Positions 12,529 to 63,497 of a DNA stretch of 64,000 bases are shown piece after piece. Both the position numbers and the translations under genes were made by a program. The notes beneath the pieces were generated by a model. It saw only the letters and a program-made list of their open reading frames with translations, made no database searches and was not told where the DNA came from. Positions within the stretch are counted from its first letter, which is position 1; each line of letters starts with the position of its first letter. The DNA comes from Clostridia bacterium (GTDB lineage: Bacteria; Bacillota; Clostridia; UMGS1883): contig JAZRFC010000048.1 in the NCBI GenBank assembly GCA_045661145.1, positions 2,071-66,070 on the forward strand, given 5' to 3'.

Positions 12529-12532
12529 AACA

Positions 12533-12733: not shown

Positions 12734-12763
12734 AAAAAATCACCTCTTGATAGAGATATTATG

Positions 12764-15324: not shown

Positions 15325-16668
15325 CTATGTGCGACATAATAGCACACAGCACTCAACATGTGAAGTTTGTGGGAATTGGTCGAACACGTGGACTTCCTTT
15401 AGTATATATCCGTTTTGACATAGGTATTTTGTATCCCTTGCCATTGTGGCAGGGTCGCAGGAAACATAAACAATTCTCTCCGGCTTCATTTCTGCAATAG
15501 AGGAGAGAAGCTTTTCATCGCATCCTTTTCTGGGTGGGTCGAGAACAACTACGTCGGCTTTTTCACCGTTTCTTATAAGCTTCGGCGCAACATCCTCTGC
15601 AGGCCCACAATAAAATTCCGTGTTGTCAATGCCGTTTAATTCTGCGTTTTCCTTTGCGTTTTTCACGGCATCCTCTACTATTTCAATGCCTATAACTTTC
15701 TTCGCTTTTGGGGCAAGGAAAAGACTGATGCTTCCCGTTCCGCAGTAAAGGTCGAACACGGTTTTTTCTTTATCAAGGGCAGCAAGCTCCAACGCTTTTT
15801 CGTAAAGCAGTCTGGTGGTGCAGGGGTTTACCTGATAAAAACTTTTATAATGCACCTTATATTTAACTTCGCCAACATTATCGATAATGTACGGAACTCC
15901 ATATATTACCTTATCTCTGTCGCCGTACACATTATTTGTTCTGTCGGGGTTTATGTTTACAACAATCCCTTTCACAAAAGGAAATTTTTCCGTAATTGCA
16001 TCAACAAGGATTTCGGTAGAGGGGAGCGACTTTTTTGCAACAAGTACAAGCACCGCCTCGTCTTTACCTGTTCGCATACATATTCTGCGAAGATTTCCCG
16101 AAGCCGTTTCTTCATCATAAATATCTATGCCGTTATCGGTTGCCCATTTGCATACGGCACCGACAACCTCGTTTGTTCTTACGTCCTGCAAACTGCATGC
16201 CTCGGGGACAACAACTCTGTGGCTGTGTGGTGCGTAGAAGCCTGCACAAACCTCTCCGTCAATAACTGTTACGGGAAACTGTGCCTTATTTCTGTAATTA
16301 TAGCAAGGATTGCTTCCCGTGACAGAATCAATTTTAGCACCGGAAAATCCGCCGATTCTTACAAGGGCGTCAAGGACTTTATTCTTTTTGTACTCAAGCT
16401 GATAGCTGTATTCAACACTCTGCATACTGCAGCCGCCGCACTTCTGGAAAACCTCACAACGGGGAGTGGTTCTCAGCGGTGACGGTTCTATAACCTCCAG
16501 AAGCTTGCCGTAGCCGTAATTCTTCTTTTCCTTAACAATCAGAATTTTTGCAATATCGCCCTTGACTGCACCGGGTACAAATACCGTAAAACCGTCAGGC
16601 TTGGCAATTCCCTCGCCATCGGAGCCGAATCCAATAATCTCTGTTATATGTTCTGTATTTTTGTACAT
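15325..16668 (-). CDS. 23S rRNA (uracil-C5)-methyltransferase, RumA/RlmD/TrmA family
   Basis: 447 aa with an N-terminal TRAM domain, Fe-S cysteines (CEVFQKCGGC), a SAM-binding DLYCGTGS motif and a C-terminal DPPRKG...SCDPATMARD. Confidence 0.9.
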   Translation of the reverse strand: MYKNTEHITEIIGFGSDGEGIAKPDGFTVFVPGAVKGDIAKILIVKEKKNYGYGKLLEVIEPSPLRTTPRCEVFQKCGGCSMQSVEYSYQLEYKKNKVLDALVRIGGFSGAKIDSVTGSNPCYNYRNKAQFPVTVIDGEVCAGFYAPHSHRVVVPEACSLQDVRTNEVVGAVCKWATDNGIDIYDEETASGNLRRICMRTGKDEAVLVLVAKKSLPSTEILVDAITEKFPFVKGIVVNINPDRTNNVYGDRDKVIYGVPYIIDNVGEVKYKVHYKSFYQVNPCTTRLLYEKALELAALDKEKTVFDLYCGTGSISLFLAPKAKKVIGIEIVEDAVKNAKENAELNGIDNTEFYCGPAEDVAPKLIRNGEKADVVVLDPPRKGCDEKLLSSIAEMKPERIVYVSCDPATMARDTKYLCQNGYILKEVHVFDQFPQTSHVECCVLLCRT

Positions 16669-32962: not shown

Positions 32963-33039
32963 CTGGGTGTAGCGCAGTTTGGTAGCGTGCTTGAATGGGG
33001 TTCAAGAGGCCGGGAGTTCAAGTCTCCCCACTCAGACCA
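32963..33039 (+). tRNA. tRNA-Pro (anticodon GGG)
   Basis: A 77 nt cloverleaf was folded by hand. Acceptor CTGGGTG/CACTCAG has the bacterial tRNA-Pro C1:G72 pair and A73. Anticodon loop is AT-GGG-GT, T-arm is GGGAG-TTCAAGT-CTCCC, and CCA is encoded. Confidence 0.9.
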
Positions 33040-40590: not shown

Positions 40591-42891
40591 ATGGCAAAAA
40601 CTTATGAAAGAAAAAAAGAAAGGCAAAATAATATTTTGTATACCGTTGTCACTGCAATTTTAATTTGTGCGGTGTTTTTTGCTATGGTTGTTTCATTTTA
40701 TTTTGAAGCTGAGGACGAAGCATATGAAATGCTTCACATTCAGACAAAACAGATTAAAGACGACCTTACTTTGCAGATGAAGTCAGACAAAGAAAATCTT
40801 GTTACCATGGCGAACTTTGCGGCAAAGCTCTATGCAGACGGTGAAAGTTATGAGCGTATGTTTGACTCATTTAAGCCTATCGGCTTATTCTCGAGAATCG
40901 GTATTTTAAACCCTGACGGCACCTTTATTACCAAGGATGAAACCGTTAATTTAAGAGATAGGCTCTCTTTTGAGGAAGAAGCCTTAAAGGGTGAACATAT
41001 CACAGGCAGAACACAGAGCTACTCAAGACCGGGGGAGGAGGTAGTTCGAAGCGTTGTTCCCTTTCAGGTAAACGGGGAAACCGTCGGTATTATATACGGT
41101 ATCATTAAGATTGAAACCATCAACGAAAAATACAATAACATGGCTCGGGAATTAGATGCGCAGCTTTTCGTTTATGATAAAGAAACCGGAAAGTTTATTA
41201 TAGATACAATTGATAAAAATCCCGGTGAGTTGTCAAATTTTAAAGACAGAGAATATAATGACGGCTATTCCTATGAGGCTTTGGAAACTACTGACAAAGG
41301 ATATTCCTCGTTCAAATCCAAGTTTACAGGTGAAGATTTGTATATTCACTATTCTACGATTGAAGATTTTAATTGGGGTATAATGCTTGCCCGCTATGAA
41401 ACACAGGTGTTTGCGGAAACACATAAAATTTTCCGAAATTTAGTTTTTAGTTTTACTTTAGTAATTTTAATTATAGCTGTTTACCTGCAGTTGGTTTTAA
41501 AAAGAGAGAGAGACAGAACGAAACTGCAGGCAGAATCTTCAACTATCAGAAAGCTTCTTCTGGAAATAGCTGAAGAGTACACAAATGTTACTGAAGCGAT
41601 GAAGAAAATTAAGGAATTTTCAAACGCACGTTCTGCTTTTTTTGCGGATACGGACGGGGAAGATTTCTTCTATATCAAACCGTCTTTAAGAGAAAAGCTT
41701 TTAGTAGGAGCTGACAGGAAATATTTCCAAACAGAGCTTTTCAGGTATGCTGCAAATATTCATAATAAAAGAAAATCAGCTATTGGTTTTATGCAGATTG
41801 TCCCGAACAAGCACCTTGCTAAAACCAATCGGGAACTATATCAATTTTTAATAAATCACAATATCAATGACATATCCTTTGCAATTGTCACAGATAAGAA
41901 TAACCATGCGGGAATTCTGGGAACGATTAATCCGAAGAAAAGCTCTTTTACCCGAAAACTCCTTGAGGAAGTTGCAGTTTGTTTTTCTATTGCTATGTAC
42001 AATAAAAAACATCTTAATAAAACAGAGCTTGCCGCAACAACTGATTCTCTTACAGGGGCATTAAATCGTGTGGCATATAAAAAAGATATTTTGAAATTAG
42101 ACGATGAGAAACCTGAAGAATTTTCCTGTATTTATATTGACGTAAATGAACTTCATCTCAGAAACAACAAATACGGACATGCTGCAGGCGATGAAATGCT
42201 TATCTATATTGCCAATACCTTGAAAGAGGTGTTCTACGGACATAGTATTTACCGTATGGGCGGAGATGAGTTTTTAGTATTCACAAAGGATACCACACAG
42301 GAAAAGATTAAAGAGAATATAGAAATATTTATCAGCCAATTAAAACCCATGGGATATAATGTGGCAATAGGTATGTCTTACAGAAGCCAGAATACAAACT
42401 GCGAAGAAATGGTTCGCGAAGCTGAAATAAGAATGTATGAAGCGAAAGCACAGTACTATCAGAATAAAGACAATAGCAGTGTATCTGAGGATAAAGACAA
42501 AGAATATGTGTATACAAAAACGGGCATCAAAGAAATTGATACAATGATATCTGTCATAAAGGAAAACTACAACGGCATTTACAGAGTGTCTCTTGAGAAT
42601 GATAATGCTCATCGCATACTTATGCCTGCATATCTCGGATATAACGAAGATGAAGAAAACTTTTCAAAACTTTTGGCAAAATACATTGATGAGATTGTGC
42701 ATCCCGATTTCCACAGAGCTGTTATGAGCTTTCTGAATTATGATGCATTAAGAAGACAATTGCTGGAAGGCAAAGTACCGACAATTACATATAAAAAAAT
42801 ACACGGTGAAGCAGTTACACTCAGTGTCTATAATTTAACCGATGATAAAGGCGACGTAAAAGATACTCTTTGGGTTTTTGCTAACGAGTGA
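40591..42891 (+). CDS. Membrane sensor diguanylate cyclase: TM, Cache-like, TM, GAF-like, GGDEF, then a C-terminal PAS-like domain
   Basis: 766 aa. The extracytoplasmic region between two TM helices resembles dCache. An intact GGDEF domain is present (DSLTGALNRVAY, IDVNELHLRNNKYGHAAGDE, YRMGGDEFLVF), followed by ~150 extra C-terminal residues. Confidence 0.85.
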   Translation: MAKTYERKKERQNNILYTVVTAILICAVFFAMVVSFYFEAEDEAYEMLHIQTKQIKDDLTLQMKSDKENLVTMANFAAKLYADGESYERMFDSFKPIGLFSRIGILNPDGTFITKDETVNLRDRLSFEEEALKGEHITGRTQSYSRPGEEVVRSVVPFQVNGETVGIIYGIIKIETINEKYNNMARELDAQLFVYDKETGKFIIDTIDKNPGELSNFKDREYNDGYSYEALETTDKGYSSFKSKFTGEDLYIHYSTIEDFNWGIMLARYETQVFAETHKIFRNLVFSFTLVILIIAVYLQLVLKRERDRTKLQAESSTIRKLLLEIAEEYTNVTEAMKKIKEFSNARSAFFADTDGEDFFYIKPSLREKLLVGADRKYFQTELFRYAANIHNKRKSAIGFMQIVPNKHLAKTNRELYQFLINHNINDISFAIVTDKNNHAGILGTINPKKSSFTRKLLEEVAVCFSIAMYNKKHLNKTELAATTDSLTGALNRVAYKKDILKLDDEKPEEFSCIYIDVNELHLRNNKYGHAAGDEMLIYIANTLKEVFYGHSIYRMGGDEFLVFTKDTTQEKIKENIEIFISQLKPMGYNVAIGMSYRSQNTNCEEMVREAEIRMYEAKAQYYQNKDNSSVSEDKDKEYVYTKTGIKEIDTMISVIKENYNGIYRVSLENDNAHRILMPAYLGYNEDEENFSKLLAKYIDEIVHPDFHRAVMSFLNYDALRRQLLEGKVPTITYKKIHGEAVTLSVYNLTDDKGDVKDTLWVFANE

Positions 42892-42911
42892 TTAAACGGA
42901 GGAACAACAAA

Positions 42912-43298
42912 GTGATACTGCAACTAATCAAATTTGGAGTGGTAGGCGTTATTGCTACCTTTGTAGACGTGGGAGTTCTTGTCGTATTAAAGGAACTGCT
43001 TCACGTGGATATTTTGCTTGCTTCGGCAATTTCCTTTTGTGCTTCCGTTACAGTAAATTACATTTTGAGTATGTCCTTTGTTTTCAAAAGAAAAAAACAA
43101 AGCAAGCTCAAGGAATTTATTATATTTGTATTACTCAGTATTGGCGGACTGTGCTTAAACCAATTGATTTTATGGATTGGAGTTAAGTTTACGTCTGTGT
43201 ATTATCTGATAGTAAAATTGTTTGCCGTGGTAATTGTACCGATTTACAATTTTATAACAAGAAAAATTTTTTTAGAGGCAAAAGGGAAATCGTTATGA
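42912..43298 (+). CDS. GtrA-family membrane protein (polyprenyl-phosphate sugar translocase-like)
   Basis: LIKFGVVGVIATFVDVGVLVVL and four TM segments. GTG 42912, preceded by GGAGG, was preferred over GTG 42888. Confidence 0.8.
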   Translation: MILQLIKFGVVGVIATFVDVGVLVVLKELLHVDILLASAISFCASVTVNYILSMSFVFKRKKQSKLKEFIIFVLLSIGGLCLNQLILWIGVKFTSVYYLIVKLFAVVIVPIYNFITRKIFLEAKGKSL

Positions 43299-43855: not shown

Positions 43856-45361
43856 TTGAATAATAAAGATTCAAGAATTAAAAATAATTTAATATCGTCA
43901 CTTGTTTATCAGGTTGTGCTTATATCACTGAGTTTCCTCCTGCCGAGATTATATCTTGAAAATTTTGGTTCAGAGGTTAACGGTGTACTTTCGACCATAA
44001 AACAGATTTTTATGTATCTGTTCCTTTTGGAAGCTGGCGTAGGTCTTGCCACAACACAGGCTCTTTATAAAAGAATCGGGGAAAAGGATTACAAGAGTGC
44101 AAACGAAGTTCTTTCTGCCACCAATTCTTATTATATCAAAACAGGAATAATTTACCTAGCCATCGTACTTGTTATTGCCATTGTATATGCTTATGTAATA
44201 CCAACCTCAATAGACAGCAATGTAGTGTTTTTAATAATTATATTAACTGCTTTGCCCGCACTTTTCAGTTATTTTGTTCAGGCAAAATACAGAATACTTA
44301 TGGAGGTTGACGGAAGAAAGTATGTAATAAATAACTCTGAAACAATTCTTCAGCTTGCTTCAAATGCAGGCAAAATACTTGTTTTGGTTTTAACAGACAG
44401 TCTTCTTCTTATTCAGCTGGTTTATTGCATAATGTCACTTATTCAGCTTGCATATTTATATTTTTATGCAAGGCAGAGATATAAATGGCTTGATTTAAAT
44501 GTAAAACCTGATTTTGAGGCTATTTCACAGAAAAACTCGGTATTGGTACATCAGCTTTCAGGTATGGTATTCAATAATACCGACGTAATACTTATTTCCG
44601 TTCTTTGCGATTTTAAGGCGGTAAGTATTTATGCCATATATAATATTTTCTTTTCTCAGGTGCAGAATTTTATAACAAGTGTGGTTTCGTCCTTTACTTT
44701 CGCATTGGGACAGATGTTTCATACTGACAGAGAAAAGTTTGACAAGCTGTTTAATGTATACGAAACTTTTTACATAATGGCAACTTCTCTCATTTATACT
44801 CTTATGGCAGTATTTTTATTGCCTTTGATACAGATATATACGAGCGGAATAAACGATGCACAGTACACAAACACATTACTTGTATTGCTTTTTGTAATAA
44901 TGAATTTGCTCTCCAACTGTAAAATCCCTGCCAACAGTGTTATTGAATATTCGGGCGATTTTGAAAAAACCCGTTCCTATGCAATATGGGAAATGGTTAT
45001 AAATATCACGGTTTCCATTGCCGCAATTCTTTATATGGGAATATGCGGGGCAATAGTAGGAACAATTGCGGCGCTTTTATACCGCGGAGCAGTTACAATT
45101 TACTATTCAAACAGAAAAGTTCTTAAAAGAAGTCAGATGCATACATATAAAACCCTGATTTCAAACTGTGCGGTATTTGCTCTGATTATGGGAATATTTT
45201 TTGTTGACACATTCAGTAATGTTTCCTTCTTACAATTGCTAGCAAAAGGAGTTGTACACTCGGTATGGATTGCAGGATTGTACTTACTTGTAAACCTTGT
45301 ATTCAATAAGTCTGCTTTTAAAACTATTTTTGAAGTATACAGGGGGAATAAAAATCAATGA
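43856..45361 (+). CDS. Wzx-type oligosaccharide flippase (MOP superfamily)
   Basis: 501 aa with about 12-14 TM segments, inside the glycosyltransferase cluster. Confidence 0.8.
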   Translation: MNNKDSRIKNNLISSLVYQVVLISLSFLLPRLYLENFGSEVNGVLSTIKQIFMYLFLLEAGVGLATTQALYKRIGEKDYKSANEVLSATNSYYIKTGIIYLAIVLVIAIVYAYVIPTSIDSNVVFLIIILTALPALFSYFVQAKYRILMEVDGRKYVINNSETILQLASNAGKILVLVLTDSLLLIQLVYCIMSLIQLAYLYFYARQRYKWLDLNVKPDFEAISQKNSVLVHQLSGMVFNNTDVILISVLCDFKAVSIYAIYNIFFSQVQNFITSVVSSFTFALGQMFHTDREKFDKLFNVYETFYIMATSLIYTLMAVFLLPLIQIYTSGINDAQYTNTLLVLLFVIMNLLSNCKIPANSVIEYSGDFEKTRSYAIWEMVINITVSIAAILYMGICGAIVGTIAALLYRGAVTIYYSNRKVLKRSQMHTYKTLISNCAVFALIMGIFFVDTFSNVSFLQLLAKGVVHSVWIAGLYLLVNLVFNKSAFKTIFEVYRGNKNQ

Positions 45362-46092
45362 GTATTCCAAAAGTAATTCACTACTGCTGGTTTGGAAAAG
45401 GCAAAATGCCTGCACTTTCTGAAAAATGCATTGAAAGCTGGAAAAAATACTGCCCTGAATATAAAATAGTTTGCTGGAACGAAGACAATTTTGATATAAC
45501 ACAAAACAATTATGCCAGGGAAGCGTATGAGGCAGGTAAATGGGCTTTTGTCAGCGATTACGTCAGACTTAAAGTCTTGTATGACGAGGGCGGAATTTAT
45601 CTTGACACAGATGTAGAGCTTATAAAACCCCTTGACAAGCTTATAGAAAAAAGCGGATATATGGGATTTGATGATAACGGAGTTATATCAACAGGTCTTG
45701 GATTTGCCTGCGAAAAGGGAAATGAACTTATAGGTGCTCTTCTGAAAGATTATGAAGATATACATTTTTTGCTTTCTGACGGCACTTATGACCTTACTCC
45801 ATGCCCTGACAGAAATACAAAAACTATGCAAGAACTAGGACTTGATATCAGTATCCAAAAACAGCGTTTTATGGGGATACAAATGCTTCCCGAAGAATAT
45901 CTTTGCCCTATGAAATATTATACGGGAAAAAAGATAATAACCGAAAATACTTATTCCATACATCATTTTTGTGCATCGTGGACATCAAAAACCGCCAAGC
46001 GGACCCTGTTTGTAAAGCGGATTATAGGTGTAAAGCTGTACGATAAACTGTACGGAAAATTTTTACATAAAGTTAAATGGCTGGAGTGGTAA
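45358..46092 (+). CDS. GT32-like glycosyltransferase (DXD sugar-transferase family)
   Basis: IPKVIHYCWFGKG...VSDYVRLKVLYDEGGIYLDTDVE. Confidence 0.8.
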   Translation: MSIPKVIHYCWFGKGKMPALSEKCIESWKKYCPEYKIVCWNEDNFDITQNNYAREAYEAGKWAFVSDYVRLKVLYDEGGIYLDTDVELIKPLDKLIEKSGYMGFDDNGVISTGLGFACEKGNELIGALLKDYEDIHFLLSDGTYDLTPCPDRNTKTMQELGLDISIQKQRFMGIQMLPEEYLCPMKYYTGKKIITENTYSIHHFCASWTSKTAKRTLFVKRIIGVKLYDKLYGKFLHKVKWLEW

Positions 46093-47645
46093 GTTTGCCC
46101 GAAAAAGTATTGAAAAAACTTAATACACATGTCTTGCCCGAATGGAAGGTTTGCTTTATTTCAGCTCTTTTGGTTGGATTATTTGCCCATTTATACAAGA
46201 TAACAAATTGGCTTCCCAATTGGGATTCATTAGTGTTCAGGTATGATTCACAGAATATGATTACTCTTGGAAGATGGTTTTTGCCTGTTGTCTGCTCGCT
46301 TAGCTCGTTTTATGACCTGCCGTTTTTAAACGGTATAATTGCAATTATTTTTCACGCGTTGAGTGCCGTGTGTATTTGCAGGATACTTAATGTACAGAAA
46401 AAAATTACCGCAGGCTTAATAGGTGCAGTTATCGTTTCGTTTCCGACGGTTACTTCGGTTATGATGTATAACTATGTGGCTGACGGTTACAGTATTGCAT
46501 TCTTCCTTTCAACTCTTGCGGCACTGTATATGACGAAAGAAAAACCGAGGTATCTTCTCTCAGCGGTACTTATTGCTTTATCAACGGGGATTTATCAGGC
46601 GTACATAACCGTTACAATAATGCTTGTTTTACTCCATTTAACAGATGAAATGATTTTCAGTAACACCTCTTTTCGGGTTATTTTGAAAAAGGCTGTGTGT
46701 ATGCTTTTATCGGGAGTTTCAGGTGTAGCATTATACAGCATTATACTTAAAGTAACTCTTGGTCTCTTTTCTGTAGAATTGCTTGATTATCAGGGAGCTA
46801 ATGATGCGGCATCACTTTCAAATATAGATATACTTGCTTCGCTTTACGTTGTTAAAGAAACCTTTATTAAATGCTTCTTTGATTTATCGGGCGGTGTAAA
46901 TGTATATATTGTACTTAATACCGCTATATTGATTTTTACACTCGTGTATTACCTTAAAGGTGTAATAAAGAACAGACTCTATAAAAATCCTGCAAACATC
47001 TTTATGATTATTATTTTGAGTGTTTTGCTCATATTTGGAGCAGGAGCACTTGCTTTTATAAATGCAGGTGTTGACTATCACAACCTGATGCTTATGGGAT
47101 ATGTTGTATTCTATTTGTTTTTCCTGATAATTTATGAAAGAGGGGAAGAAGCAAAGGAAAAACATACTGCTATCAAATGCTGGAGTGTACTTATAACAGC
47201 AGTTGTAATCATCGCAAATCAGGTTGTCATATCGAATGTAAGCTACCATAAAGCACAGATAGCTTATGAAAAGTCCTATGGGGTTTTGATGCGTATAGCA
47301 GACCGTATAGAACAGACCTCGGGAGCCGCAGATTGTGACAAAATTCTTGTAATCGGTGCTCTTGATAACAGTGACGCATACAGCGTTAATCTCACACCTG
47401 ATATTACGGGAATAACAGATGGATATATAATCCGTGCAGATGATGAAACAGTGGGACAAAGTGTATTCTGCAGTGCTGTTAACGATTACTGCGGTAAGAA
47501 TTACGAATTTGTAAGCGGTAAAGAAAAGAAAAAAATTACTCAAAGAGAAGATGTTAAATCTATGGGAAAATGGCCGTCAGAGGATTGTGTGGCAATCATA
47601 GATGATACAGTTGTTATTAAACTTGGTACAGAGGGTGAAAAGTAA
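46077..47645 (+). CDS. GtrII-type (Glucos_trans_II-like) polytopic membrane glycosyltransferase
   Basis: 522 aa with about 11 TM segments. The N-terminal HLYKITNWLPNWDSLVF motif is typical of glucosyltransferase-domain proteins. The start is uncertain. Confidence 0.65.
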   Translation: MAGVVSLPEKVLKKLNTHVLPEWKVCFISALLVGLFAHLYKITNWLPNWDSLVFRYDSQNMITLGRWFLPVVCSLSSFYDLPFLNGIIAIIFHALSAVCICRILNVQKKITAGLIGAVIVSFPTVTSVMMYNYVADGYSIAFFLSTLAALYMTKEKPRYLLSAVLIALSTGIYQAYITVTIMLVLLHLTDEMIFSNTSFRVILKKAVCMLLSGVSGVALYSIILKVTLGLFSVELLDYQGANDAASLSNIDILASLYVVKETFIKCFFDLSGGVNVYIVLNTAILIFTLVYYLKGVIKNRLYKNPANIFMIIILSVLLIFGAGALAFINAGVDYHNLMLMGYVVFYLFFLIIYERGEEAKEKHTAIKCWSVLITAVVIIANQVVISNVSYHKAQIAYEKSYGVLMRIADRIEQTSGAADCDKILVIGALDNSDAYSVNLTPDITGITDGYIIRADDETVGQSVFCSAVNDYCGKNYEFVSGKEKKKITQREDVKSMGKWPSEDCVAIIDDTVVIKLGTEGEK

Positions 47646-48506
47646 GTGATATATTTTTGTGCTGACGATTATGGTCTGAATGATATATCATCATTGCATA
47701 TACAGGAGTGTATCGATAAAGGTGCACTTAATAAGGTTAGTGTGTTTCCCAATTTTGAACAAGTTGATTTGGGCAAAATATCAGAAAATAAAAACATCAG
47801 AATTTCTCTGCACTTAAACCTTGTTGAGGGGAAGTGTATGGCAGAGGCAGGCGAAATAAATCTGCTTGCAGACGAAAACGGGAATTTTAAGCATACCTTT
47901 GTAGGTCTTTTTAAACTCAGTTTATTTCACAGAAAAAAACTTGAGGAGGAAGCGTATAAAGAAATCAAGGCACAGGTTTTATTCTGGAAAAGCATTTTGC
48001 CGGAGGATATACCTTTTTGTATCGACGGCCATCAGCATACTCATATGATTCCGGCTGTGTTTAAAGCCCTGATTAGAGTTTTAAGTGATGAAAAAATCAA
48101 TTTAAAATATATGCGGATTCCGGCAGAACCGATTTTGCCGTATATAAAAACACCATCTCTTTATTTTACATACAGTGCAGTAAATATTATTAAACAATGG
48201 CTTCTTAAATTCTTGTGGCTGATTAATAAAAATCAGTCAGGAAAATACAAAATACCAACATCGCATTTTATGGGAATCCTTTTTTCGGGAAATATGGATG
48301 AAAAAAGAGTAAAAAAAATCCTGCCAAAATACATTAAAATGGCAGAAAAAGACGGCAGGGATATAGAAGTGTTATTCCATCCCGGATATATTGACAAGGA
48401 TGAATTTAAATACGAAAATATAGCTTTTAAGGATTTTTATTTATCGGAAAACAGAAAAACAGAATTTGATTCTGTAATGAAAATATTAGAAAGAAGTGTG
48501 CTGTAA
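47646..48506 (+). CDS. ChbG/HpnK (YdjC-like) carbohydrate deacetylase
   Basis: MIYFCADDYGLN...HLNLVEGK...DGHQHTHMIP. Confidence 0.8.
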   Translation: MIYFCADDYGLNDISSLHIQECIDKGALNKVSVFPNFEQVDLGKISENKNIRISLHLNLVEGKCMAEAGEINLLADENGNFKHTFVGLFKLSLFHRKKLEEEAYKEIKAQVLFWKSILPEDIPFCIDGHQHTHMIPAVFKALIRVLSDEKINLKYMRIPAEPILPYIKTPSLYFTYSAVNIIKQWLLKFLWLINKNQSGKYKIPTSHFMGILFSGNMDEKRVKKILPKYIKMAEKDGRDIEVLFHPGYIDKDEFKYENIAFKDFYLSENRKTEFDSVMKILERSVL

Positions 48507-49186
48507 TGCCCTATATTGATCAGGACAAGGTTGACGCTAAAACAAGAGAAAAATTGGAAGCAATTATCGAAAAATCATACGCCACCTTTTGGAGGGGGAA
48601 AAGACTTTTTGACATCTTTTTTGCTACACTGATTTTGTTGTTTTTCTTACCTTTGATGGCTGTAATTGCCATTGTGATTGTAATTGATGACCCCAGCGCC
48701 GGGCCTTTCTACAAGCAGATAAGAATAGGCCGTCACGGAAAAGAGTTTTATATGTACAAGTTCAGAACTATGCGTGCAAATGCCGACAAAATGATTGAAG
48801 AGCTTGCAAAACAGAACGAAATGGACGGCCCCGTATTTAAAATGAAAGAGGACCCCCGTATAACAAGAGTTGGCAAATATTTAAGAAAGCTTTCTCTTGA
48901 CGAGCTTATGCAGTTTTTTAATGTTCTTAAGGGAGATATGACCCTTGTAGGTCCGAGACCTCCGCTTCCGAGAGAGGTTCAGTATTATACTGATTATCAA
49001 AGACTCAGACTTCTTGTTACTCCCGGACTTACCTGCACATGGCAGATTTCCAAAAACAGAAATGACATCCCCTTTGAACAGTGGGTTGAAATGGATATTG
49101 AATACATACAGACAAGAACGTATCTTAATGATATAAAAATTATGCTTAAAACACCGATAGTTATGCTTACCGCTACCGGACGATAA
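48506..49186 (+). CDS. Undecaprenyl-phosphate sugar phosphotransferase (bacterial sugar transferase; initiating enzyme)
   Basis: 226 aa with KRLFDIFFA..., PFYKQIRIGRHGKEFYMYKFRTM, DELMQFFNVLKGDMTLVGPRP. Confidence 0.9.
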   Translation: MPYIDQDKVDAKTREKLEAIIEKSYATFWRGKRLFDIFFATLILLFFLPLMAVIAIVIVIDDPSAGPFYKQIRIGRHGKEFYMYKFRTMRANADKMIEELAKQNEMDGPVFKMKEDPRITRVGKYLRKLSLDELMQFFNVLKGDMTLVGPRPPLPREVQYYTDYQRLRLLVTPGLTCTWQISKNRNDIPFEQWVEMDIEYIQTRTYLNDIKIMLKTPIVMLTATGR

Positions 49187-50325: not shown

Positions 50326-50403
50326 GCCGGAAGCGAATAATCCGAACCCGCCTGAAACAGCGTTGTTTCGGTATATTTCGGCTAAAGTAAAGGTTTGGTT
50401 AAT

Positions 50404-51405
50404 ATGGTTAAGAAAATAAGAATATTTAAAAAGAATATTTACGAAGCTTTAAGCCCCGCAATGAAAAAGAATATCAGGGCTCTTAAATTTTTTGCTATCG
50501 GTATGATTTTTGTTTGTATCGCAACAGCTATAATTGTTATTATGTGCAGTTATATCGGTAACAGAAATTTCAGAGAAACCTTTTACAGTGCAAGCAGTAT
50601 CAAGGTTGACAGCCCTGTGCGTGTCATTCAATTATCAGATTTACACGGCTCGTCTTACGGAAAAAACAACAAAAAGCTCCTGGAACGTGTTAAAGCTCTG
50701 GAGCCTGACATAATAATCTGCACGGGCGATATGGTGGATTCTGCGAAGGAGGATGTTGATTTTGCGGTGTCTTTAGGGGAAGAGCTGTCAAAGATTGCTC
50801 CCTCATACTATGTATACGGCAATAATGAAGTGGAAACCATCTATGATTTCCCGCTTAACGAAAAAGAACTTGATAAGAAATTCGGATTTGATAAAAATAA
50901 CCGTGATGAAACCGCACTTTTAAAACTTGAGGACTCTTTTGAAGAAAAGCTTGAAAATGCAGGGATAAAGGTTCTCAAAAACGAAAAGGACACAATAAAG
51001 GTAAAAACCATGTCAATTGATGTGTACGGGGTTTTAAACTCAAATCCCTCTTCATTCTGGTCTTATTCGGAAAAAGCCTTTTTCGATTATATTTATGAAA
51101 ATCCAGATAATCTTAAAATTACAGCAGTACACGAGCCTTTCATTTTTGAAGAGTTCCAACCTGAATTCTGGGGTGATTTACTGCTCTCAGGACATACCCA
51201 CGGCGGAGTTATGCGTATCCCCGTACTCGGTCCTTTGTTTACACGGGAGGGCGGTTTGTTCCCCGAACGAAACGGTAAGTTTGTTTACGGAAGATATGAA
51301 GCCGCAGGAAAGCTTTTAATCGTGAGTGGAGGACTTGAAAATTCAAATGTTTTTCGTATAAACAATCAGCCGGAATTGGTTGTTATCGATATTAACAAAT
51401 TTTAA
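50404..51405 (+). CDS. Membrane-anchored metallophosphoesterase
   Basis: LSDLHG, GDMVD, GNNE and GHTHGG motifs after an N-terminal TM helix. Confidence 0.8.
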   Translation: MVKKIRIFKKNIYEALSPAMKKNIRALKFFAIGMIFVCIATAIIVIMCSYIGNRNFRETFYSASSIKVDSPVRVIQLSDLHGSSYGKNNKKLLERVKALEPDIIICTGDMVDSAKEDVDFAVSLGEELSKIAPSYYVYGNNEVETIYDFPLNEKELDKKFGFDKNNRDETALLKLEDSFEEKLENAGIKVLKNEKDTIKVKTMSIDVYGVLNSNPSSFWSYSEKAFFDYIYENPDNLKITAVHEPFIFEEFQPEFWGDLLLSGHTHGGVMRIPVLGPLFTREGGLFPERNGKFVYGRYEAAGKLLIVSGGLENSNVFRINNQPELVVIDINKF

Positions 51406-51425
51406 TTTTGGGAGGGATACGGACA

Positions 51426-52787
51426 ATGTTTAATGTACTTCAAAAATTAATTATTTTAATTATCGGCGTGTTGTTTGCAACTGCAGTAACAACAATATTT
51501 TTCCGTTCTAAAAATATTAATCGCACAGAACGTACTCAGATTTTCAAAACCGCGGAATATTTTAATGCATGGATAATCCTGATATGCTTTATTGTCACTA
51601 TGATGTATGGAATTTTTAATCATTTTGAACTTAAAAAGTCCGTTCATGCAATCGTTTCTTTGAATTATTCTGAAGCCTCGCAGGCACTCAATTCCAACGG
51701 AACAAGATACAATATGGCAGAAATTATCAGTGACGAGGTTGTGGAAAGAGCTATAAAAAAAGGTGCTCTCCAGGATGTAACGGTAAAACAGCTCAAAAAC
51801 TGCCTTGTAGTTTATCCTTGTGTGCAGGGCGGTGTCGGCGATGAATCGCAGTATCATATTTCCACAGAGTTTGCGGTGGAATACCACGCCTCAAAAGACA
51901 CAGCGCATCTTGATTCGGAAAATGTTATTAAACTGATAACTTCGGCATACAAAGAATACTATATAGGAAAATATACCGATAATTTCAGCCTTGATACCGA
52001 AGTACCTGATTTTAACGAAATGGAGTATATGGATATAGTGTCCTATCTCGATAAGGAAACACAGGCTATTTTGAATTATCTCTATGGTATGGCAGGAAAA
52101 AATCCGAGCTTCGTTACGGAAAACGGAAGCACCTTCAATTCCATTGCAGGAAAGGTGCATCAGTTCAAGGAAACCCAGATAAATCAGAATTTAAAATCTC
52201 TCATTCTGCAAAACGGTATTGCAAGAGATAAAGACGGGTATGTTGACAGATTGTCATATCATAATAAAAATGTAGATTTTGACCGTCGGAAAAACGATGC
52301 ATCCTATAAGCTTTGCAATCAGGCAATTGATATGTACAGCGAGGAAATGACAAGAGTAGTGCTTGTTCCTACATGGGATCAGGCGGGCAAATACTACATG
52401 GGCAGAACGAAAGTCGGTGTCGATGAGCTGTCTGTTATGGCGACGGATTTCAGTAATTATGTTGCATCCAATGAAAAAGAAATTATGGATAATAAATTGG
52501 TGATTGATAAAATTTCTTCAAGCAGTCAGGCATCACAGCTTTATGTGTCCGCAGATTCTCTTATAGATTCTGTTTATGAGAGTATCAAGGGCTTTGAAAA
52601 AGAAGCAATAAGTGCAGGAAGAGAATATTTCCGTCACAAGATGAATCAGTGTATTGCGGTAAGTATTTACGGAATTTCGCTTATGAGTGAACTTAAAACA
52701 CTTATCATATTTGCGGCTTTTGCATACGTGTCGCTTATACTTTATCGGATTTCCAGAAAATTCGATAAAAAGGGAGGATGGCAATGA
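51426..52787 (+). CDS. Hypothetical bitopic membrane protein, possibly a second co-polymerase (PCP/Wzz-like)
   Basis: It has N-terminal TM helices, a ~350 aa extracytoplasmic region (MAEIISDEVVERAIKKGAL resembles the PCP motif) and a C-terminal TM helix. Its stop overlaps the next start (ATGA). Confidence 0.5.
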   Translation: MFNVLQKLIILIIGVLFATAVTTIFFRSKNINRTERTQIFKTAEYFNAWIILICFIVTMMYGIFNHFELKKSVHAIVSLNYSEASQALNSNGTRYNMAEIISDEVVERAIKKGALQDVTVKQLKNCLVVYPCVQGGVGDESQYHISTEFAVEYHASKDTAHLDSENVIKLITSAYKEYYIGKYTDNFSLDTEVPDFNEMEYMDIVSYLDKETQAILNYLYGMAGKNPSFVTENGSTFNSIAGKVHQFKETQINQNLKSLILQNGIARDKDGYVDRLSYHNKNVDFDRRKNDASYKLCNQAIDMYSEEMTRVVLVPTWDQAGKYYMGRTKVGVDELSVMATDFSNYVASNEKEIMDNKLVIDKISSSSQASQLYVSADSLIDSVYESIKGFEKEAISAGREYFRHKMNQCIAVSIYGISLMSELKTLIIFAAFAYVSLILYRISRKFDKKGGWQ

Positions 52788-54649
52788 AAAACTTTCAGAT
52801 TTTAAGATATTTAAAAAAGCTTTTACCCGTCATTGTCGTTTTTTGCCTTTTGGCAACCTATGCTGTTTATTTTAAACTTTCAACATCGAATACATATATA
52901 GCATCTGAGGTTATCCATTATAACGATGAACAGGCGGAAAAAGGTCTTGCACCAACGGGGGATAAGCTGGACGTAAACGAAATCAAATCCTCTGCAGTAA
53001 TGTCAAAAGTGGTTGATAAAATGGGACTTACAGGTATTTATTCGGTTGACAGTCTTATTTCAAGAATTAACATTACCCCTATCGAGGATAAGGATAAGGT
53101 AGCGCAGAAAGATGCAAAGCTTGAAGAAGGCGAAGAATATATATATAAGCCAAGCACATTTATTGTTTCCTTTTCTTCAACAAGCGGTGAGGGACCTGAT
53201 TTTGCAAGAACAATACTTGATGAAACGCTGGACGTTTATTTTGAGCAGTTCAGTCAGAAGTATGTAAATGTAGCTCCTGCAAACAATACTATCGAAAACC
53301 TCAATAAAAATGATTACGATTTTATTGAAATGATGGAGCTCATTGATACAAGTATTGACAACACTCTCACAACCTTGTACCAGAGAATGGAGCAGAACAA
53401 TTATTACAGAGCAACCGAAACAGGCGTGTCGTTTGCCGAGCTTGTGGATGGATTTAACTATTTAAGGCAGGTTAAGGTTTCTGCCCTTTTCTCAAAGATT
53501 TATAAGTATCAGATTACAAAAAATAAGGAAGTCCTCGTTTCTGACTATACAACAAGAATAGACAATAACAATATCTCCAATGCAAAGGACGAAAGTATTG
53601 TCGAGGATGTTGTTACTGTAATAAATGCCTATGTCAAAAAAATGAGAGAGTCGGGGAACACAAATATAAGCTATGAATACATTCTTGATAATCTCCATGA
53701 GAGAAATCTGCAGGATTATGTCGGAGACCAGACTGTAACCTATGATGAATTGATTTATAGCTGGAGGGACCGTAACGAAAGTAAAGAGCACGCAATTATT
53801 GACTCTGCATACTGCAATTATATTTTAAATACATTTACTTCCTGTACGGGTAATTGCAGGGGTGCCTGCAAATCCTCTGACTTGACCTGCGCGGAGCTTA
53901 GTAATAAAGAATATGCAGATATAAGAGAAGATGTTGAGCATGAAATTGATACACTTCTTAATGAGCTGTCTGTTCTTTACGACACAACAATGAAAACCAA
54001 TGATGAATACAACAAATACCTTGGTGCCAGCTATATTTCGGTATTGTCATCGGCATCTGTAAGGGAAAGCGTTAATGTACCCCTTTATACAGCAATTGCA
54101 TTTTTCTTCCTTATGGTTCTTTGTTGCGGAGGTGCAATTATGCTGGTAAGAACGGGAGAGATAGTAAACTACATTTTCTATACAGACCATCTTACAGAAT
54201 TTAATAACAGGGCATATCTTGACAAATACTTAAAATCCAAGGACAAAAAGCTTCTTGATGACGGCGTTGTGTACTGTATGGTTGATATATCCAATCTGAT
54301 ACACATCAACACCGAGTATTCGAGAGATGCGGGTGACGATATTATAAAGATGTTCACAAGCTACATAAAAGAATCCTTTGGCAAATCCAGAACTGAGTAC
54401 ATTTATAATGGAAACGGCAGTTTTGTTATGCTGACAGAAGAGTCTGATTACATTACCGTTGAAGATATAATGAGACTTTTCAGACTCAGACTTGATGAAA
54501 GAGAAGAACGCAGAGAAATTGTTATCGAATATAAGATTGGTATTGCCGAAACCTTTAAAGAAAATAAAACGGCAAGAAAATTGCTCTCGGAGGCAATCGA
54601 AAATAAAAAGAACTATATTTCAGATTTAAAAAGCAAAAGTTCATTGTAA
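52784..54649 (+). CDS. Wzz/PCP-like chain-length determinant fused to a degenerate cytoplasmic GGDEF domain
   Basis: The order is TM, long extracytoplasmic helical region (EIKSSAVMSKVVDKMGLTG), TM, then DHLTEFNNRAYL, VDISNLIHINTEYSRDAGDD and YNGNGSF in place of GGDEF. Confidence 0.7.
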   Translation: MKNFQILRYLKKLLPVIVVFCLLATYAVYFKLSTSNTYIASEVIHYNDEQAEKGLAPTGDKLDVNEIKSSAVMSKVVDKMGLTGIYSVDSLISRINITPIEDKDKVAQKDAKLEEGEEYIYKPSTFIVSFSSTSGEGPDFARTILDETLDVYFEQFSQKYVNVAPANNTIENLNKNDYDFIEMMELIDTSIDNTLTTLYQRMEQNNYYRATETGVSFAELVDGFNYLRQVKVSALFSKIYKYQITKNKEVLVSDYTTRIDNNNISNAKDESIVEDVVTVINAYVKKMRESGNTNISYEYILDNLHERNLQDYVGDQTVTYDELIYSWRDRNESKEHAIIDSAYCNYILNTFTSCTGNCRGACKSSDLTCAELSNKEYADIREDVEHEIDTLLNELSVLYDTTMKTNDEYNKYLGASYISVLSSASVRESVNVPLYTAIAFFFLMVLCCGGAIMLVRTGEIVNYIFYTDHLTEFNNRAYLDKYLKSKDKKLLDDGVVYCMVDISNLIHINTEYSRDAGDDIIKMFTSYIKESFGKSRTEYIYNGNGSFVMLTEESDYITVEDIMRLFRLRLDEREERREIVIEYKIGIAETFKENKTARKLLSEAIENKKNYISDLKSKSSL

Positions 54650-54684: not shown

Positions 54685-55989
54685 GTGGAAAATAAAATTC
54701 TTGAAAGAGCAAAAGTGTTTTATTTTATGGTTGTAGCTGTAATGATGTACTATTTTCTCAATGAATACATTGACATAGGCCTGCACGTTACATACCGTCA
54801 TGCATTTGCCCTCGTTCTCTTCGGCTCTGCAACTCTTTTGTTTTTATATAAGCCTGATATTGCAAGAGGATTCACCGCTTTTAAGGAAGCGTGCATTTAC
54901 AGTGCCCCCCTATTAGTTACCACGATAGTTTCACTTTTTATATGGTTTGTGGAAACGGTAGACGTTGGTGTTATTTCAAGAGGTCTTTCAAGCTCCTTTG
55001 TATATGCCAATATGCTTTCATTTGCTTTGGGAGCAGGTGCTCTGCTTTATATTTTCGGAAGAAAAGGTATATGGTATAATCTTGTGGCTATTCTGATTGC
55101 AAATATTTTAATGATAGTTACGGTTATTGCACAGAACGGACTTGGAAGCTATCTTTCTGAATTTGTAACTCTTGTAACCACCTTTGCGGGCGTAACGGGA
55201 GATATTATTGTTCAGGCGGAAATTCACGAGCTTGCTTTTTGCCTTGGTGCATACCTCATTTATATGCTTTATAAACCGCAAAAAAACATAATATATTTTA
55301 TATTGCTTTTCTTAAGTCTTTTCTGTTTTTTATCGGCATTTAAGAGAATTGCAATAATTGCCATAGCAATAGCCCTTGTGTTTGGCTATCTTTTAAAATT
55401 TATTGCACGGTACAACAAGAAAACAGCAAGCAGACTCATTACAATCCTTACATTTCTTGTGGTTATTTTGCTTATAGGCTACATTGCCCTTATAAAGATG
55501 GATGCATTTGAGCTTCTTGAAAATGCAGGAATAAACACAAGCGGGCGTGTTGAGATTTATAATGCAGTAGATGAGTTTTATGAATTCAGCCCGAGCTTTT
55601 TGGGTAACGGAATCGGCTTTCTGACCTATCAGCTGAATACATTTATGAATGTCGGTGTTGCATCTGTTCATAATGACTTTCTTCAGCACTTCATTGATTT
55701 GGGTTTCTGGGGCTATATTATATGGCTTGTGTCTATGACTTTAGTCAGAGTGTGGTATTTCGGAAGGCACGGCAATGTGGAAAACGCCATTATTACATTT
55801 ATGCTTACCATGTATCTCATAGTTGTATCCAGCACAGACAACACTATGAACTATCCGCTCTTAACGGGGGTTCTTGCAATACTTATGATGGGAAACAACT
55901 ATGAGGAAAAGGTACGCCACAGTGAATATAAAATTTTTGGTTATGTTTCGGATGCCAACAAAAAAGAGGAAAGTGATTCATTGTTATGA
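54685..55989 (+). CDS. O-antigen ligase/polymerase family membrane protein (Wzy-like)
   Basis: 434 aa with about 10-12 TM segments and a large loop containing HNDFLQHFIDLGFWG. Confidence 0.75.
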   Translation: MENKILERAKVFYFMVVAVMMYYFLNEYIDIGLHVTYRHAFALVLFGSATLLFLYKPDIARGFTAFKEACIYSAPLLVTTIVSLFIWFVETVDVGVISRGLSSSFVYANMLSFALGAGALLYIFGRKGIWYNLVAILIANILMIVTVIAQNGLGSYLSEFVTLVTTFAGVTGDIIVQAEIHELAFCLGAYLIYMLYKPQKNIIYFILLFLSLFCFLSAFKRIAIIAIAIALVFGYLLKFIARYNKKTASRLITILTFLVVILLIGYIALIKMDAFELLENAGINTSGRVEIYNAVDEFYEFSPSFLGNGIGFLTYQLNTFMNVGVASVHNDFLQHFIDLGFWGYIIWLVSMTLVRVWYFGRHGNVENAIITFMLTMYLIVVSSTDNTMNYPLLTGVLAILMMGNNYEEKVRHSEYKIFGYVSDANKKEESDSLL

Positions 55990-60375: not shown

Positions 60376-61743
60376 ATGAAATTTTTTGAATATCCTTATG
60401 TGATTATAACTATTCTTGCGATAATTTTTCTTGCAATGGGACTTATCGGACTGTATTTTACGATGAAATCGGTAAAAACAGCGAAAGGAACAGCGGAGAA
60501 AAATTTTTGCGGGATAGGTAAAATAGAAAATGATTTTGAAAAAGCGGGAGCTTCCAGAAAAAATCGCTCAATTGTATATATTTCAATATCCCTTGACAGT
60601 ATGAAAAGACTGTATTCGGAATCAAAGGCTATAAGAATGTATGAGCAACTTAAAAGAATTTTACTGAGTCATTTTTGCCTTAGTATAGGCGGAGAGATTT
60701 CCCTTTACGGCACAGAAAATTTCATTGCACTAAACGGTCTGGAATCAGCTGAAACAGTTAAGTGTATTGAAAGTTGTTTTGAAGAAATTAACGAAGCTTT
60801 TGTAAACCACGGTGCAGTGGGTGTTGTCCGTATAAATTTTGGATACCACCAGACCAGCTCAACCGAGGTTTCGTTCAAAACTGCCCTTGGGCGAGCAAAA
60901 CAGGCTTGCAGTATGGCAGAAGATAAAGATGTTTTATACTGTCAGTGGGACAGCTCAAACGGAAAAGAATTTGAAAGAAAACTAAAAATCGAAAATAACA
61001 TACAAAACGAGATTGACAACAACAGATTTTTTCTCGAGTATCAGCCCATTTTGGACGCAAAGACAAATAAAATTATGGGTGCAGAGGTACTGTCAAGACT
61101 TAATTCACCTACCGAGGGGGTGTTGACACCGTCAGCGTTCCTTTCTGCGGTAAATAATGTTGGATTAAACGAAAAGTTCGATTATTATATTTTTGAAAAA
61201 AACTGCAAATGGATTTCAAGTGATAAAGAAAACCGAACTAAATATGTATATACAATAAATTTTTCACGCTACACTCTTTGCGACCCGAATCTGGCAGACA
61301 GGATAATAGAAATTGTAGAAAAATACGGCATTGACTATTCGTGTATAGCTGTTGAAATTCTCGAGGATAAAAGTCTCGATAAGGATGAAAAATCCACAAT
61401 GATAAAAAATTTAACCCGTTTAAAAGAAAAAGGAGTTTTAATTCTTCTCGACGATTTCGGAAAGGGCTATACAAGTTTTAGCGATTTAACGGATTTTGAT
61501 ATAAATATTGTAAAAATTGATAAATCAATAACCCAGAACGCAACGAATCAGACAGGACTTTTAATTCTCAAAAATATTATAAGAACCGCACATGACTTGG
61601 GATTTAGGACACTATGCGAGGGCATAGAAACAGAAGAGCACAGAAAAACAGCCGTGGAGTCAGGTTGCGATATGCTTCAGGGATATTATTTTTACCGTCC
61701 GATACCCGTTACACAATTAGAAAAATTATTTGAGAAACAGTAA
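60376..61743 (+). CDS. Membrane-anchored degenerate-GGDEF / EAL protein (putative c-di-GMP phosphodiesterase)
   Basis: An N-terminal TM helix is followed by a GGDEF-like fold with YGTENF in place of GGDEF. The EAL domain landmarks are EYQPIL, EVLSR, EILED, DDFGKGYTS, KIDKS, EGIETEE and QGYYF. Confidence 0.8.
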   Translation: MKFFEYPYVIITILAIIFLAMGLIGLYFTMKSVKTAKGTAEKNFCGIGKIENDFEKAGASRKNRSIVYISISLDSMKRLYSESKAIRMYEQLKRILLSHFCLSIGGEISLYGTENFIALNGLESAETVKCIESCFEEINEAFVNHGAVGVVRINFGYHQTSSTEVSFKTALGRAKQACSMAEDKDVLYCQWDSSNGKEFERKLKIENNIQNEIDNNRFFLEYQPILDAKTNKIMGAEVLSRLNSPTEGVLTPSAFLSAVNNVGLNEKFDYYIFEKNCKWISSDKENRTKYVYTINFSRYTLCDPNLADRIIEIVEKYGIDYSCIAVEILEDKSLDKDEKSTMIKNLTRLKEKGVLILLDDFGKGYTSFSDLTDFDINIVKIDKSITQNATNQTGLLILKNIIRTAHDLGFRTLCEGIETEEHRKTAVESGCDMLQGYYFYRPIPVTQLEKLFEKQ

Positions 61744-62723: not shown

Positions 62724-63497
62724 ATGGAAAAGGTAATCACAAAAAGCATTTTAAAAGGTCTTGAAAATAATGAGTTTAAGATGTACTTGCAGTTTATAGT
62801 AGATAATAAATCTAAAAATATTATTTCCGCGGAAGCACTTTCAAGATGGGATAACCCGGAAAAAGGTGTTATAGGTCCGGGAAATTATATTGGAAATATG
62901 GAAGCAGAAGGACTTATCAGCAGGCACGATTTCTATATGTTTGAGCTTGCCTGCCGTCAGCTTGAAAAATGGAAAAATACTGAGTATGAAGATATTTCAA
63001 TCTCTTGTAACTTTACAAGAATAACTCTTTCTGAAGAGGATTGCATTGACAAACTTAAAACGATTTCCGAGTGCTATGATTTCGATAAATCAAAGCTTGC
63101 AATCGAAATAACCGAAGATGCAATGGAAAAGGATAGAGAAACTGCAAAGAAAAATGTCAGACTCTGCAAAGAGCTCGGTTTCAGAATTTATCTTGACGAC
63201 ATGGGATGCGGATATACATCTTTGGTTAACCTTTGTGACTATCCGATTGATGTCGTTAAAATTGACCGTGATATTCTGCTCAGAACCAATACTTCAAGAG
63301 GAAAAGCTTTGTTTTCAGGAATTGTGGCACTTGCTCACAGCCTGAATATATCTGTAATATGCGAGGGCGTGGAAACAGAAGAACAAAATACACTCGTATC
63401 CAAATCTGACTGTGATTATATTCAGGGGTGGTATTACGCAAAAGCTCTTCCTTTAGAAGAATGTGAAGCGTTTGTAGAAGACTATCATAAAATATAA
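62724..63497 (+). CDS. Stand-alone EAL-domain protein (putative c-di-GMP phosphodiesterase)
   Basis: 257 aa with EALSRW, CNFT, EITED, DDMGCGYTS, KIDRD, EGVETEEQ and QGWYY. Confidence 0.85.
   Translation: MEKVITKSILKGLENNEFKMYLQFIVDNKSKNIISAEALSRWDNPEKGVIGPGNYIGNMEAEGLISRHDFYMFELACRQLEKWKNTEYEDISISCNFTRITLSEEDCIDKLKTISECYDFDKSKLAIEITEDAMEKDRETAKKNVRLCKELGFRIYLDDMGCGYTSLVNLCDYPIDVVKIDRDILLRTNTSRGKALFSGIVALAHSLNISVICEGVETEEQNTLVSKSDCDYIQGWYYAKALPLEECEAFVEDYHKI

Follow-up and report, generated by a model that had tools for sequence, protein, structure and literature searches.

What controls a polysaccharide co-polymerase (PCP) in a locus that encodes no tyrosine kinase? In Firmicute capsule loci the co-polymerase CpsC, a PCP-2b protein, is accompanied by a separate bacterial tyrosine kinase (BY-kinase), CpsD, and by the phosphatase CpsB. 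By what means co-polymerases govern Wzy polymerases has long been asked, and to our knowledge the only known cytoplasmic control of these proteins is tyrosine autophosphorylation. The question is raised by an exopolysaccharide (EPS) locus within 64,000 nt of DNA from a Clostridia bacterium (GenBank assembly GCA_045661145.1, contig JAZRFC010000048.1, positions 2,071 to 66,070), here called the window; coordinates are those of the window unless another locus is named. One gene of this locus, at 52784..54649, had been predicted from the sequence alone to encode a co-polymerase fused to a degenerate GGDEF domain that may have taken the place of the tyrosine kinase. Here we report that the encoded protein, termed PCP-B, combines a divergent N-terminal domain that models as a co-polymerase with a conserved GGDEF domain (GGDEF*) predicted to be catalytically dead, that the locus and its relatives have no BY-kinase, and that GGDEF* may tie the co-polymerase to signalling by cyclic di-GMP (c-di-GMP).

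A degenerate GGDEF domain is conserved in PCP-B

The open reading frame (ORF) call spans 52778..54649 on the plus strand, and the real start of PCP-B is the ATG at 52784, which follows a Shine-Dalgarno sequence (AAGGGAGGA) by 7 nt and overlaps the TGA stop of the upstream gene, PCP-A, as ATGA, a translational coupling of the two genes. Database orthologues, which form more than 120 clusters at 85-100% identity, have the same length of 621 amino acids (aa) and agree with this start. Hydropathy and an AlphaFold model of the full-length protein (predicted local distance difference test score, pLDDT, 91) gave the same layout, in which a first transmembrane segment (TM1) is followed by an extracytoplasmic domain of about 400 aa, a second transmembrane segment (TM2) and a cytoplasmic GGDEF fold. 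The N terminus is rich in Lys and Arg and is therefore cytoplasmic, and TM2 forms a single continuous helix that runs straight into the GGDEF fold, a geometry that suits conformational coupling. What the original prediction had read from the sequence, namely the ORF, the topology, the GGDEF landmarks, the altered signature and the missing RxxD, was all correct. The helical part of the ectodomain also contains a Cys-rich loop, CNYILNTFTSCTGNCRGACKSSDLTC (53810-53899, aa 343-372), which was modelled with low confidence, is limited to the nearest relatives (it does not occur in P0124, P0127 or P0130) and is odd for the extracytoplasmic domain of a strict anaerobe.

The C-terminal part of PCP-B matched the Pfam GGDEF family (PF00990) with 47.4 bits over aa 466-604, above the gathering score of 23.8, and TIGR00254 with 40 bits, and Foldseek grouped it with PleD, WspR and DgcR. 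Alignment to DgcR and PleD placed YNGNGSF where the catalytic signature RYGGEEF would stand and showed that PCP-B has no RxxD I-site, the corresponding upstream segment reading KSRTEYIY. The same changes run through the family, for which residue states are given in PleD numbering over 74 fused representatives. The signature R366-Y-G-G-E-E-F372 has become Y-N-G-[S/G]-G-Q-F (YNGxGQF) in the family consensus, and GG[DE]EF occurs in none of the 74. The metal ligand D327 is variable and the metal ligand E370 is replaced by Gly in 42 representatives; the phosphate ligands K442 and R446 are not kept, and the I-site columns R359 and D362 are unconserved. Retained are the guanine contacts N335 (54/74) and D344 (59/74, with Asn in a further 13) and, within the DxLTxLxNR motif, N299 (73/74) and R300 (66/74), and the position of H340 is occupied by Arg in 59 representatives. 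The PCP-B equivalents of N299, R300, D327, N335, H340, D344 and the signature are, in this order, N475, R476, D501, N509, R514, D518 and Y541-F547, so that both guanine-contacting residues are present as N509 and D518; the positions of E370 and E371 hold Gly and Ser, and K442 and R446 are lost.

Judged by these residues, GGDEF* is predicted to be unable to make c-di-GMP. It is under strong purifying selection: among 71 orthologous genes the ratio of non-synonymous to synonymous substitution rates (dN/dS) came to 0.055 in GGDEF*, like the 0.048 of the ectodomain, values that are approximate since dS is saturated, and YNGNGSF was kept in 64 of the 71. Across a large Clostridia family the domain is maintained in one fixed form, marked by YNGxGQF, PNR and N..GR..GD. 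Public records annotate the family as "diguanylate cyclase" or "GGDEF domain-containing protein"; the former label is wrong on activity, and the co-polymerase half has been overlooked.

The N-terminal domain resembles Wzc and Wzz

The Pfam Wzz family (PF02706) has no match in PCP-B itself, even at E <= 1, and we therefore turned to relatives and to structure. An exhaustive HMMER search with aa 1-465 gave 630 representatives at 50% clustering. Weak PF02706 matches were present in 53 of 115 family representatives, comprising 22 of 39 stand-alone proteins (about 450-480 aa; best E 1e-6) and 31 of 76 long-form proteins (best E 3e-5). Foldseek searches with the full-length model were dominated by GGDEF matches, and the N-terminal domain was modelled separately (pLDDT 85.7), which yielded TM1, a small alpha/beta base, several helices of 25-45 residues and TM2. 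The first 13 PDB matches of this model were all Wzc, Wzz or WzzE, with E values from 2.6e-6 to 2.3e-3 and a probability of 1.00. Escherichia coli Wzc in several states accounted for E values of 2.6e-6 to 1.3e-3, full-length Wzz (6RBG) was matched at 4.4e-4 and WzzE at 1.0e-3 (8P3P) and 2.3e-3 (8P3O); the next match, at E 0.02, was to an ABC transporter that has no relation to co-polymerases. A profile of the N-domain family run against PDB sequences returned coiled-coil noise only (PI3K p85 iSH2, keratin), so sequence alone does not connect the domain to solved co-polymerases.

Together, the models and the relatives support membership of the PCP superfamily for the N-terminal domain. The two folds named in the original prediction were both recovered by AlphaFold and Foldseek, and hydropathy agreed with the topology proposed there; the profile search found PF00990 in PCP-B, while PF02706, silent in the protein itself, appeared weakly in its relatives. 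The co-polymerase identity, first drawn from motifs, is thus upheld by structure and by family, and not by Pfam in the target.

No tyrosine kinase was found in the loci surveyed

Between 39.8 and 63.5 kb no ORF of 100 aa or more contains a Walker-A motif, and the only P-loops of the window lie at 0.6, 3.3, 9, 10.6 and 26.7 kb. All large ORFs in the same interval were also scanned against Pfam, and the two scans agreed on the absence of a tyrosine kinase there, as had been predicted. PCP-B itself has no Walker-A motif or P-loop and no Tyr cluster, its C-terminal domain being GGDEF. The survey was extended to 81 related loci scanned over +/-10 kb (79 of them in the count of PCP-A, and the 55 with enough flank in that of the downstream EAL gene). 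Such a kinase would be a short P-loop protein whose tail is rich in Tyr; 0 of 81 loci had one, and kinase-type Pfam families were found in none of the distant loci L083-L091. Over the interval scanned, and leaving the rest of the genome aside, this is an EPS locus without a BY-kinase, as are the related loci.

PCP-B has orthologues in at least 80 species-level genomes of ruminant and human gut origin, and relatives of the window protein come from metagenome-assembled genomes of Clostridia, Oscillospiraceae and Acutalibacteraceae. Among the full-length representatives listed, about one third have nothing after TM2 and about two thirds are fused. Two representatives carry an EAL domain after TM2 in place of GGDEF* (L084, 4960-7179; L088, 10001-12295); the EAL domain of P0262 looks catalytically intact (EAL, DDFGT and EGIE motifs), and that of P0252 is partly degenerate (DNFG, KLS). 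Two carriers of the family are cultured, Lacrimispora sp. 210928-DFI.3.58, which has the GGDEF* form and a protein matched by L091, and Acetivibrio sp. MSJd-27, which has the EAL form and whose protein WP_216424180.1 belongs to the P0262 cluster.

The gene order is conserved with the protein. PCP-A stands directly upstream of PCP-B in 79 of 79 related loci and also in the distant loci L083-L091, and the Wzy_C gene that directly follows PCP-B was found in 79 of 81. A core of Metallophos, PCP-A, PCP-B and Wzy genes recurs in L083, L084, L088, L089, L090 and L091, where PCP-B is 26-48% identical to the window protein; the Metallophos neighbours lie at 15405-16250 (L083), 7298-8161 (L084), 12279-13115 (L088), 5113-5958 (L089), 10442-11752 (L090) and 7284-8579 (L091). 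Loci built on this core make up a type of EPS locus in Clostridia that has no kinase.

These relatives bear on how the fusion arose. Fused forms occur across the family, with no kinase-like protein in the 81 related loci; the proposal that GGDEF* replaced the tyrosine-kinase switch is not supported, because stand-alone and EAL-bearing relatives also reside in kinase-less loci. The cytoplasmic domain therefore looks added, not swapped for a kinase, and addition to a kinase-less PCP ancestor fits better than kinase replacement. What stands of the earlier reading is a protein of PCP-type architecture with a degenerate GGDEF domain after TM2 in a kinase-less Wzx/Wzy locus. Its context was incomplete, leaving out PCP-A, the conserved core, an intact cyclase, two EAL genes and the relatives with EAL or no domain. 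A PCP-GGDEF fusion was not described in the full-text literature searched, which covers a part of the journals, in line with the earlier remark that no characterised example was known.

Comparison with known systems

By fold and layout the closest known systems are Wzc and Wzz, and by logic the closest are PelD-type receptors in EPS operons. Wzc of the E. coli group 1 capsule (PCP-2a; PDB 7NHR, 9EXO, 9R68), the best structural match of the N-terminal domain, likewise consists of TM1, a large helical ectodomain, TM2 and a regulatory cytoplasmic domain and works with Wzy and Wzx. GGDEF* occupies the place after TM2 where Wzc has its BY-kinase domain. Wzc differs in its cytoplasmic part, a BY-kinase with a Walker-A motif and a Tyr cluster at the C terminus, whereas PCP-B has the predicted dead GGDEF domain instead and, in addition, a paralogous partner in PCP-A; PCP-B has no Wza partner because its host is of the Gram-positive type. 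Wzz and WzzE (PCP-1; 6RBG, 8P3P), which provided structural matches 9, 10 and 13, share with PCP-B the lack of a kinase and, through its relatives, the weak PF02706 similarity; unlike PCP-B, Wzz has no cytoplasmic domain, measures about 330 aa and acts on Gram-negative O-antigen or enterobacterial common antigen. The CpsC/CpsD arrangement is similar in being a Firmicute Wzy-dependent locus with the co-polymerase beside the polymerase. The window locus, however, has neither a CpsD-like kinase nor a CpsB of the PHP family, its conserved neighbour being a calcineurin-like phosphoesterase, and the ectodomain of CpsC is about 150 aa long, compared with about 400 aa in PCP-B. PCP-B thus lacks the kinase by which both PCP-2a and PCP-2b are recognised.

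Degenerate GGDEF domains are known as c-di-GMP receptors from Listeria PssE and Bacillus subtilis YdaK, which switch on synthase-dependent EPS machines. In Bacillus cereus PelD, found with CdgF and CdgE, c-di-GMP is bound through an intact RxxD I-site (PMC7112168). PCP-B and the PelD-type receptors both have a degenerate GGDEF domain anchored in the membrane, encoded in an EPS operon that also supplies its own cyclase and phosphodiesterase. They differ in that the PelD type depends on the I-site, belongs to synthase-dependent pathways and is not fused to a co-polymerase, whereas PCP-B has no I-site. A second precedent is Caulobacter PdeA (CC3396), whose degenerate GGDEF domain still has its ligands for phosphate and metal, senses GTP and controls the EAL domain fused to it. 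Like PdeA, PCP-B has a degenerate A-site with the guanine-recognition residues retained; unlike PdeA, it has lost the phosphate and metal ligands, and its output is a co-polymerase.

A proposed route from c-di-GMP signalling to polymerisation

We propose that PCP-B is part of a kinase-less co-polymerase in which a domain from the c-di-GMP pathway provides the input that gates polymerisation or chain length, a reading to which we give an even chance. In this scheme the co-polymerase partner of Wzy would be made up of PCP-A and PCP-B together, probably in a hetero-oligomeric ring of the kind known from other PCPs, and GGDEF* would be the cytoplasmic domain through which c-di-GMP signalling reaches this complex. 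Either a guanine nucleotide (c-di-GMP or GTP) could bind to the remodelled former active site of GGDEF*, or the domain could dock the cyclase and phosphodiesterases encoded in the locus. The signal would be passed through the TM2 helix to the ectodomain ring, and the resulting change of the ectodomain would gate polymerisation or set chain length. The functional parallel would be the BY-kinase phosphorylation cycle of Wzc, in which assembly is governed by the state that the kinase ring in the cytoplasm is in.

A c-di-GMP input is supported by the occurrence of GGDEF* or EAL in the same slot, the retained guanine contacts, the four c-di-GMP genes of the window EPS locus and the lack of a riboswitch: an Rfam search found no c-di-GMP riboswitch in the window and none 5' of the EPS locus, which fits post-translational control. 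(The only Rfam match in the window was a single tRNA gene at 32963-33036.) A narrower version, for which we would claim appreciably less, makes PCP-B a c-di-GMP or GTP receptor without an I-site, in which the ligand would sit in the YNGxGQF/N..GR..GD pocket, alter how the PCP-A/PCP-B ring is assembled or its conformation, and so switch Wzy polymerisation or set chain length. If true, this would be the first case of a second messenger acting directly on the co-polymerase to control a Wzx/Wzy pathway, and a functional alternative to the BY-kinase cycle that is widespread in gut Clostridia. In either version the family would offer a natural variant of the co-polymerase with a control module of the c-di-GMP family, a dead GGDEF domain or in some relatives EAL, and a second messenger may control polymerisation directly.

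Several observations weigh against this proposal. With respect to the co-polymerase half, the global TM-scores of the N-terminal domain to known PCPs are low (0.17-0.28), as expected from its long flexible hairpins, so that the assignment draws on local 3Di similarity and weak Pfam matches and is to be read as superfamily membership, not as close kinship; and the Pro-rich motif typical of the region near TM2 in PCPs is not conserved: where TM2 begins, PCP-B reads NVPLY...CCGGAI, of which the family keeps the Gly pair (GCxGAI), and the Pro lies outside the family consensus. As to the input, GGDEF* has no known c-di-GMP-binding motif, both RxxD and the secondary-site Arg being absent, and it has lost the triphosphate and Mg2+ ligands for tight GTP binding. 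The saturated dS leaves the dN/dS values approximate, and none of these data show a chain-length function. Last, the distant fused loci L083, L089, L090 and L091 have no cyclase or EAL gene within +/-10 kb, and dedicated cyclase and EAL genes of the locus were seen only in the clade of the window.

Part of this evidence favours the main rival, in which GGDEF* binds no nucleotide and serves as a structural module for oligomerisation or docking, for example keeping the PCP ring together or recruiting glycosyltransferases or Wzx, while c-di-GMP would act elsewhere in the pathway; we regard this as possible, though rather doubtful. The missing I-site, the loss of metal and phosphate ligands, the many family members that function without any cytoplasmic domain and the distant fused loci with no cyclase or EAL gene nearby are all as such a module would have them. 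It sits less easily with the guanine-contacting Asn and Asp kept family-wide, with the distinctive motif in the former active-site hairpin, with an EAL domain, which binds c-di-GMP, in this place in other family members, and with four c-di-GMP genes in the window locus.

PCP-B could also be mainly a signalling sensor, whose ectodomain would sense the polymer or another external cue and whose GGDEF* would regulate the cyclase and phosphodiesterases by heterodimerising with them. The order of transmembrane segment, periplasmic domain, transmembrane segment, stalk and GGDEF is that of a sensory cyclase, the locus encodes partner enzymes, and PCP-A could be the true co-polymerase. We nevertheless consider this improbable: the ectodomain matches Wzc and Wzz, with the best sensor domain (McpS) reaching only E 0.03, stand-alone members that have no output domain hold the same slot beside Wzy, and PCP-B is conserved wherever PCP-A occurs.

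The lost catalytic residues, the purifying selection and the kept signature together indicate that GGDEF* is not a working cyclase and is not in decay either. That PCP-B is a diguanylate cyclase with an unorthodox signature is very unlikely; the public annotation and the presence of D501 (equivalent to D327), N509 and D518 would favour it, but Gly and Ser replace E370 and E371, K442 and R446 are gone, D327 is unconserved in the family and no fused representative has GG[DE]EF. A functionless remnant, which the degenerate catalytic motifs might suggest, is less credible still and appears already contradicted by the conservation data, given a dN/dS of GGDEF* like that of the ectodomain, the signature fixed in most orthologues and one degenerate consensus across representatives that are 25-50% identical to each other. 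Of the readings considered, a c-di-GMP-family input to a kinase-less co-polymerase is the one we prefer.

Genes of the exopolysaccharide locus

The locus (Table 1) is an ordinary repeat-unit (Wzx/Wzy) polysaccharide pathway, with Bac_transf, eight glycosyltransferases, a putative Wzx, acetyltransferases, GtrA/GtrII and YdjC. It is bounded inside the window by PAP2, ZIP and flavoprotein genes upstream and by a small ORF on the opposite strand downstream, where the counterpart locus L001 has an HTH gene. Scans for promoters and terminators did no better than on shuffled sequence.

Table 1. Coordinates of PCP-B, its parts and selected genes of the EPS locus in the window
Feature	Position	Strand	Description
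PCP-B-GGDEF* gene	52784..54649	+	621 aa + stop; divergent co-polymerase (by modelling) fused to a GGDEF domain predicted to be catalytically dead
TM1	52817..52885	+	aa ~12-34; hydropathy; AlphaFold model helix 14-34
Extracytoplasmic PCP domain	52886..54076	+	aa 35-431; alpha/beta base and long helical hairpins
TM2 and stalk helix	54077..54181	+	aa 432-466, uninterrupted into the GGDEF fold (AlphaFold); hydropathy peak 437-455
Degenerate GGDEF domain (GGDEF*)	54179..54595	+	aa 466-604; Pfam, NCBIfam, Foldseek
YNGNGSF signature	54404..54424	+	Y541-F547, replaces RYGGEEF; alignment to DgcR, PleD
PCP-A	51408..52787	+	paralogous protein with two TM segments, 459 aa, short cytoplasmic tail; stop overlaps PCP-B start
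Membrane-anchored calcineurin-like phosphoesterase	50395..51405	+	Pfam Metallophos; N-terminal TM segment
Wzy-type polymerase	54685..55989	+	Pfam Wzy_C 38.9 bits
Membrane diguanylate cyclase	40591..42891	+	intact RMGGDEF; Pfam GGDEF 72.8 bits
Membrane-anchored EAL phosphodiesterase	60376..61743	+	EVL, DDFGKGYTS, EGIE motifs; Pfam EAL 203 bits
Stand-alone EAL phosphodiesterase	62724..63497	+	Pfam EAL 200 bits
Initiating phosphoglycosyl transferase	48506..49186	+	Pfam Bac_transf 217 bits
Putative Wzx flippase	43856..45361	+	polytopic, multiple hydrophobic segments; no Pfam match

The kinship of PCP-A with the N-terminal domain of PCP-B is modest in direct comparison (BLASTP E 1e-4) and stronger through intermediates, the gene upstream of the PCP-EAL gene in L084 matching it at E 1.6e-35. 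Most PCP-A orthologues have no Pfam Wzz match, and the L084 intermediate, at 24.5 bits, falls short of the gathering score of 25.5. The label PCP-like is given to PCP-A solely on account of its paralogy to PCP-B and its topology. The phosphoesterase encoded before it could act in polymer release, transfer or phosphodiester processing. One long-form member of the PCP-B family has a Metallophos Pfam match in the same polypeptide.

Among the c-di-GMP genes, the cyclase (766 aa) has two transmembrane segments that flank an external domain of about 250 aa, a GGDEF domain without RxxD and a C-terminal extension of about 145 aa without a Pfam match. All 55 related loci whose flank was long enough have an EAL gene downstream. 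A degenerate GGDEF domain considered in the N-terminal half of the EAL protein starting at 60376 was unsupported by phmmer and was dropped. The putative Wzx has homologues that adjoin Wzy in L083 and L086, and the gene at the equivalent position in L089 belongs to Polysacc_synt. The locus further contains a GtrA-like flippase (42888-43298), a GtrII-type glucosyltransferase (46077-47645) and a YdjC-like deacetylase (47646-48506), which suggests that the polymer is glucosylated and deacetylated after polymerisation. In L086 (1-7521 on the minus strand, next to 7870-11876) a locus with a stand-alone PCP-B and a Pel-like operon, which encodes PelG, a DUF3492 glycosyltransferase and DUF2194, stand back to back.

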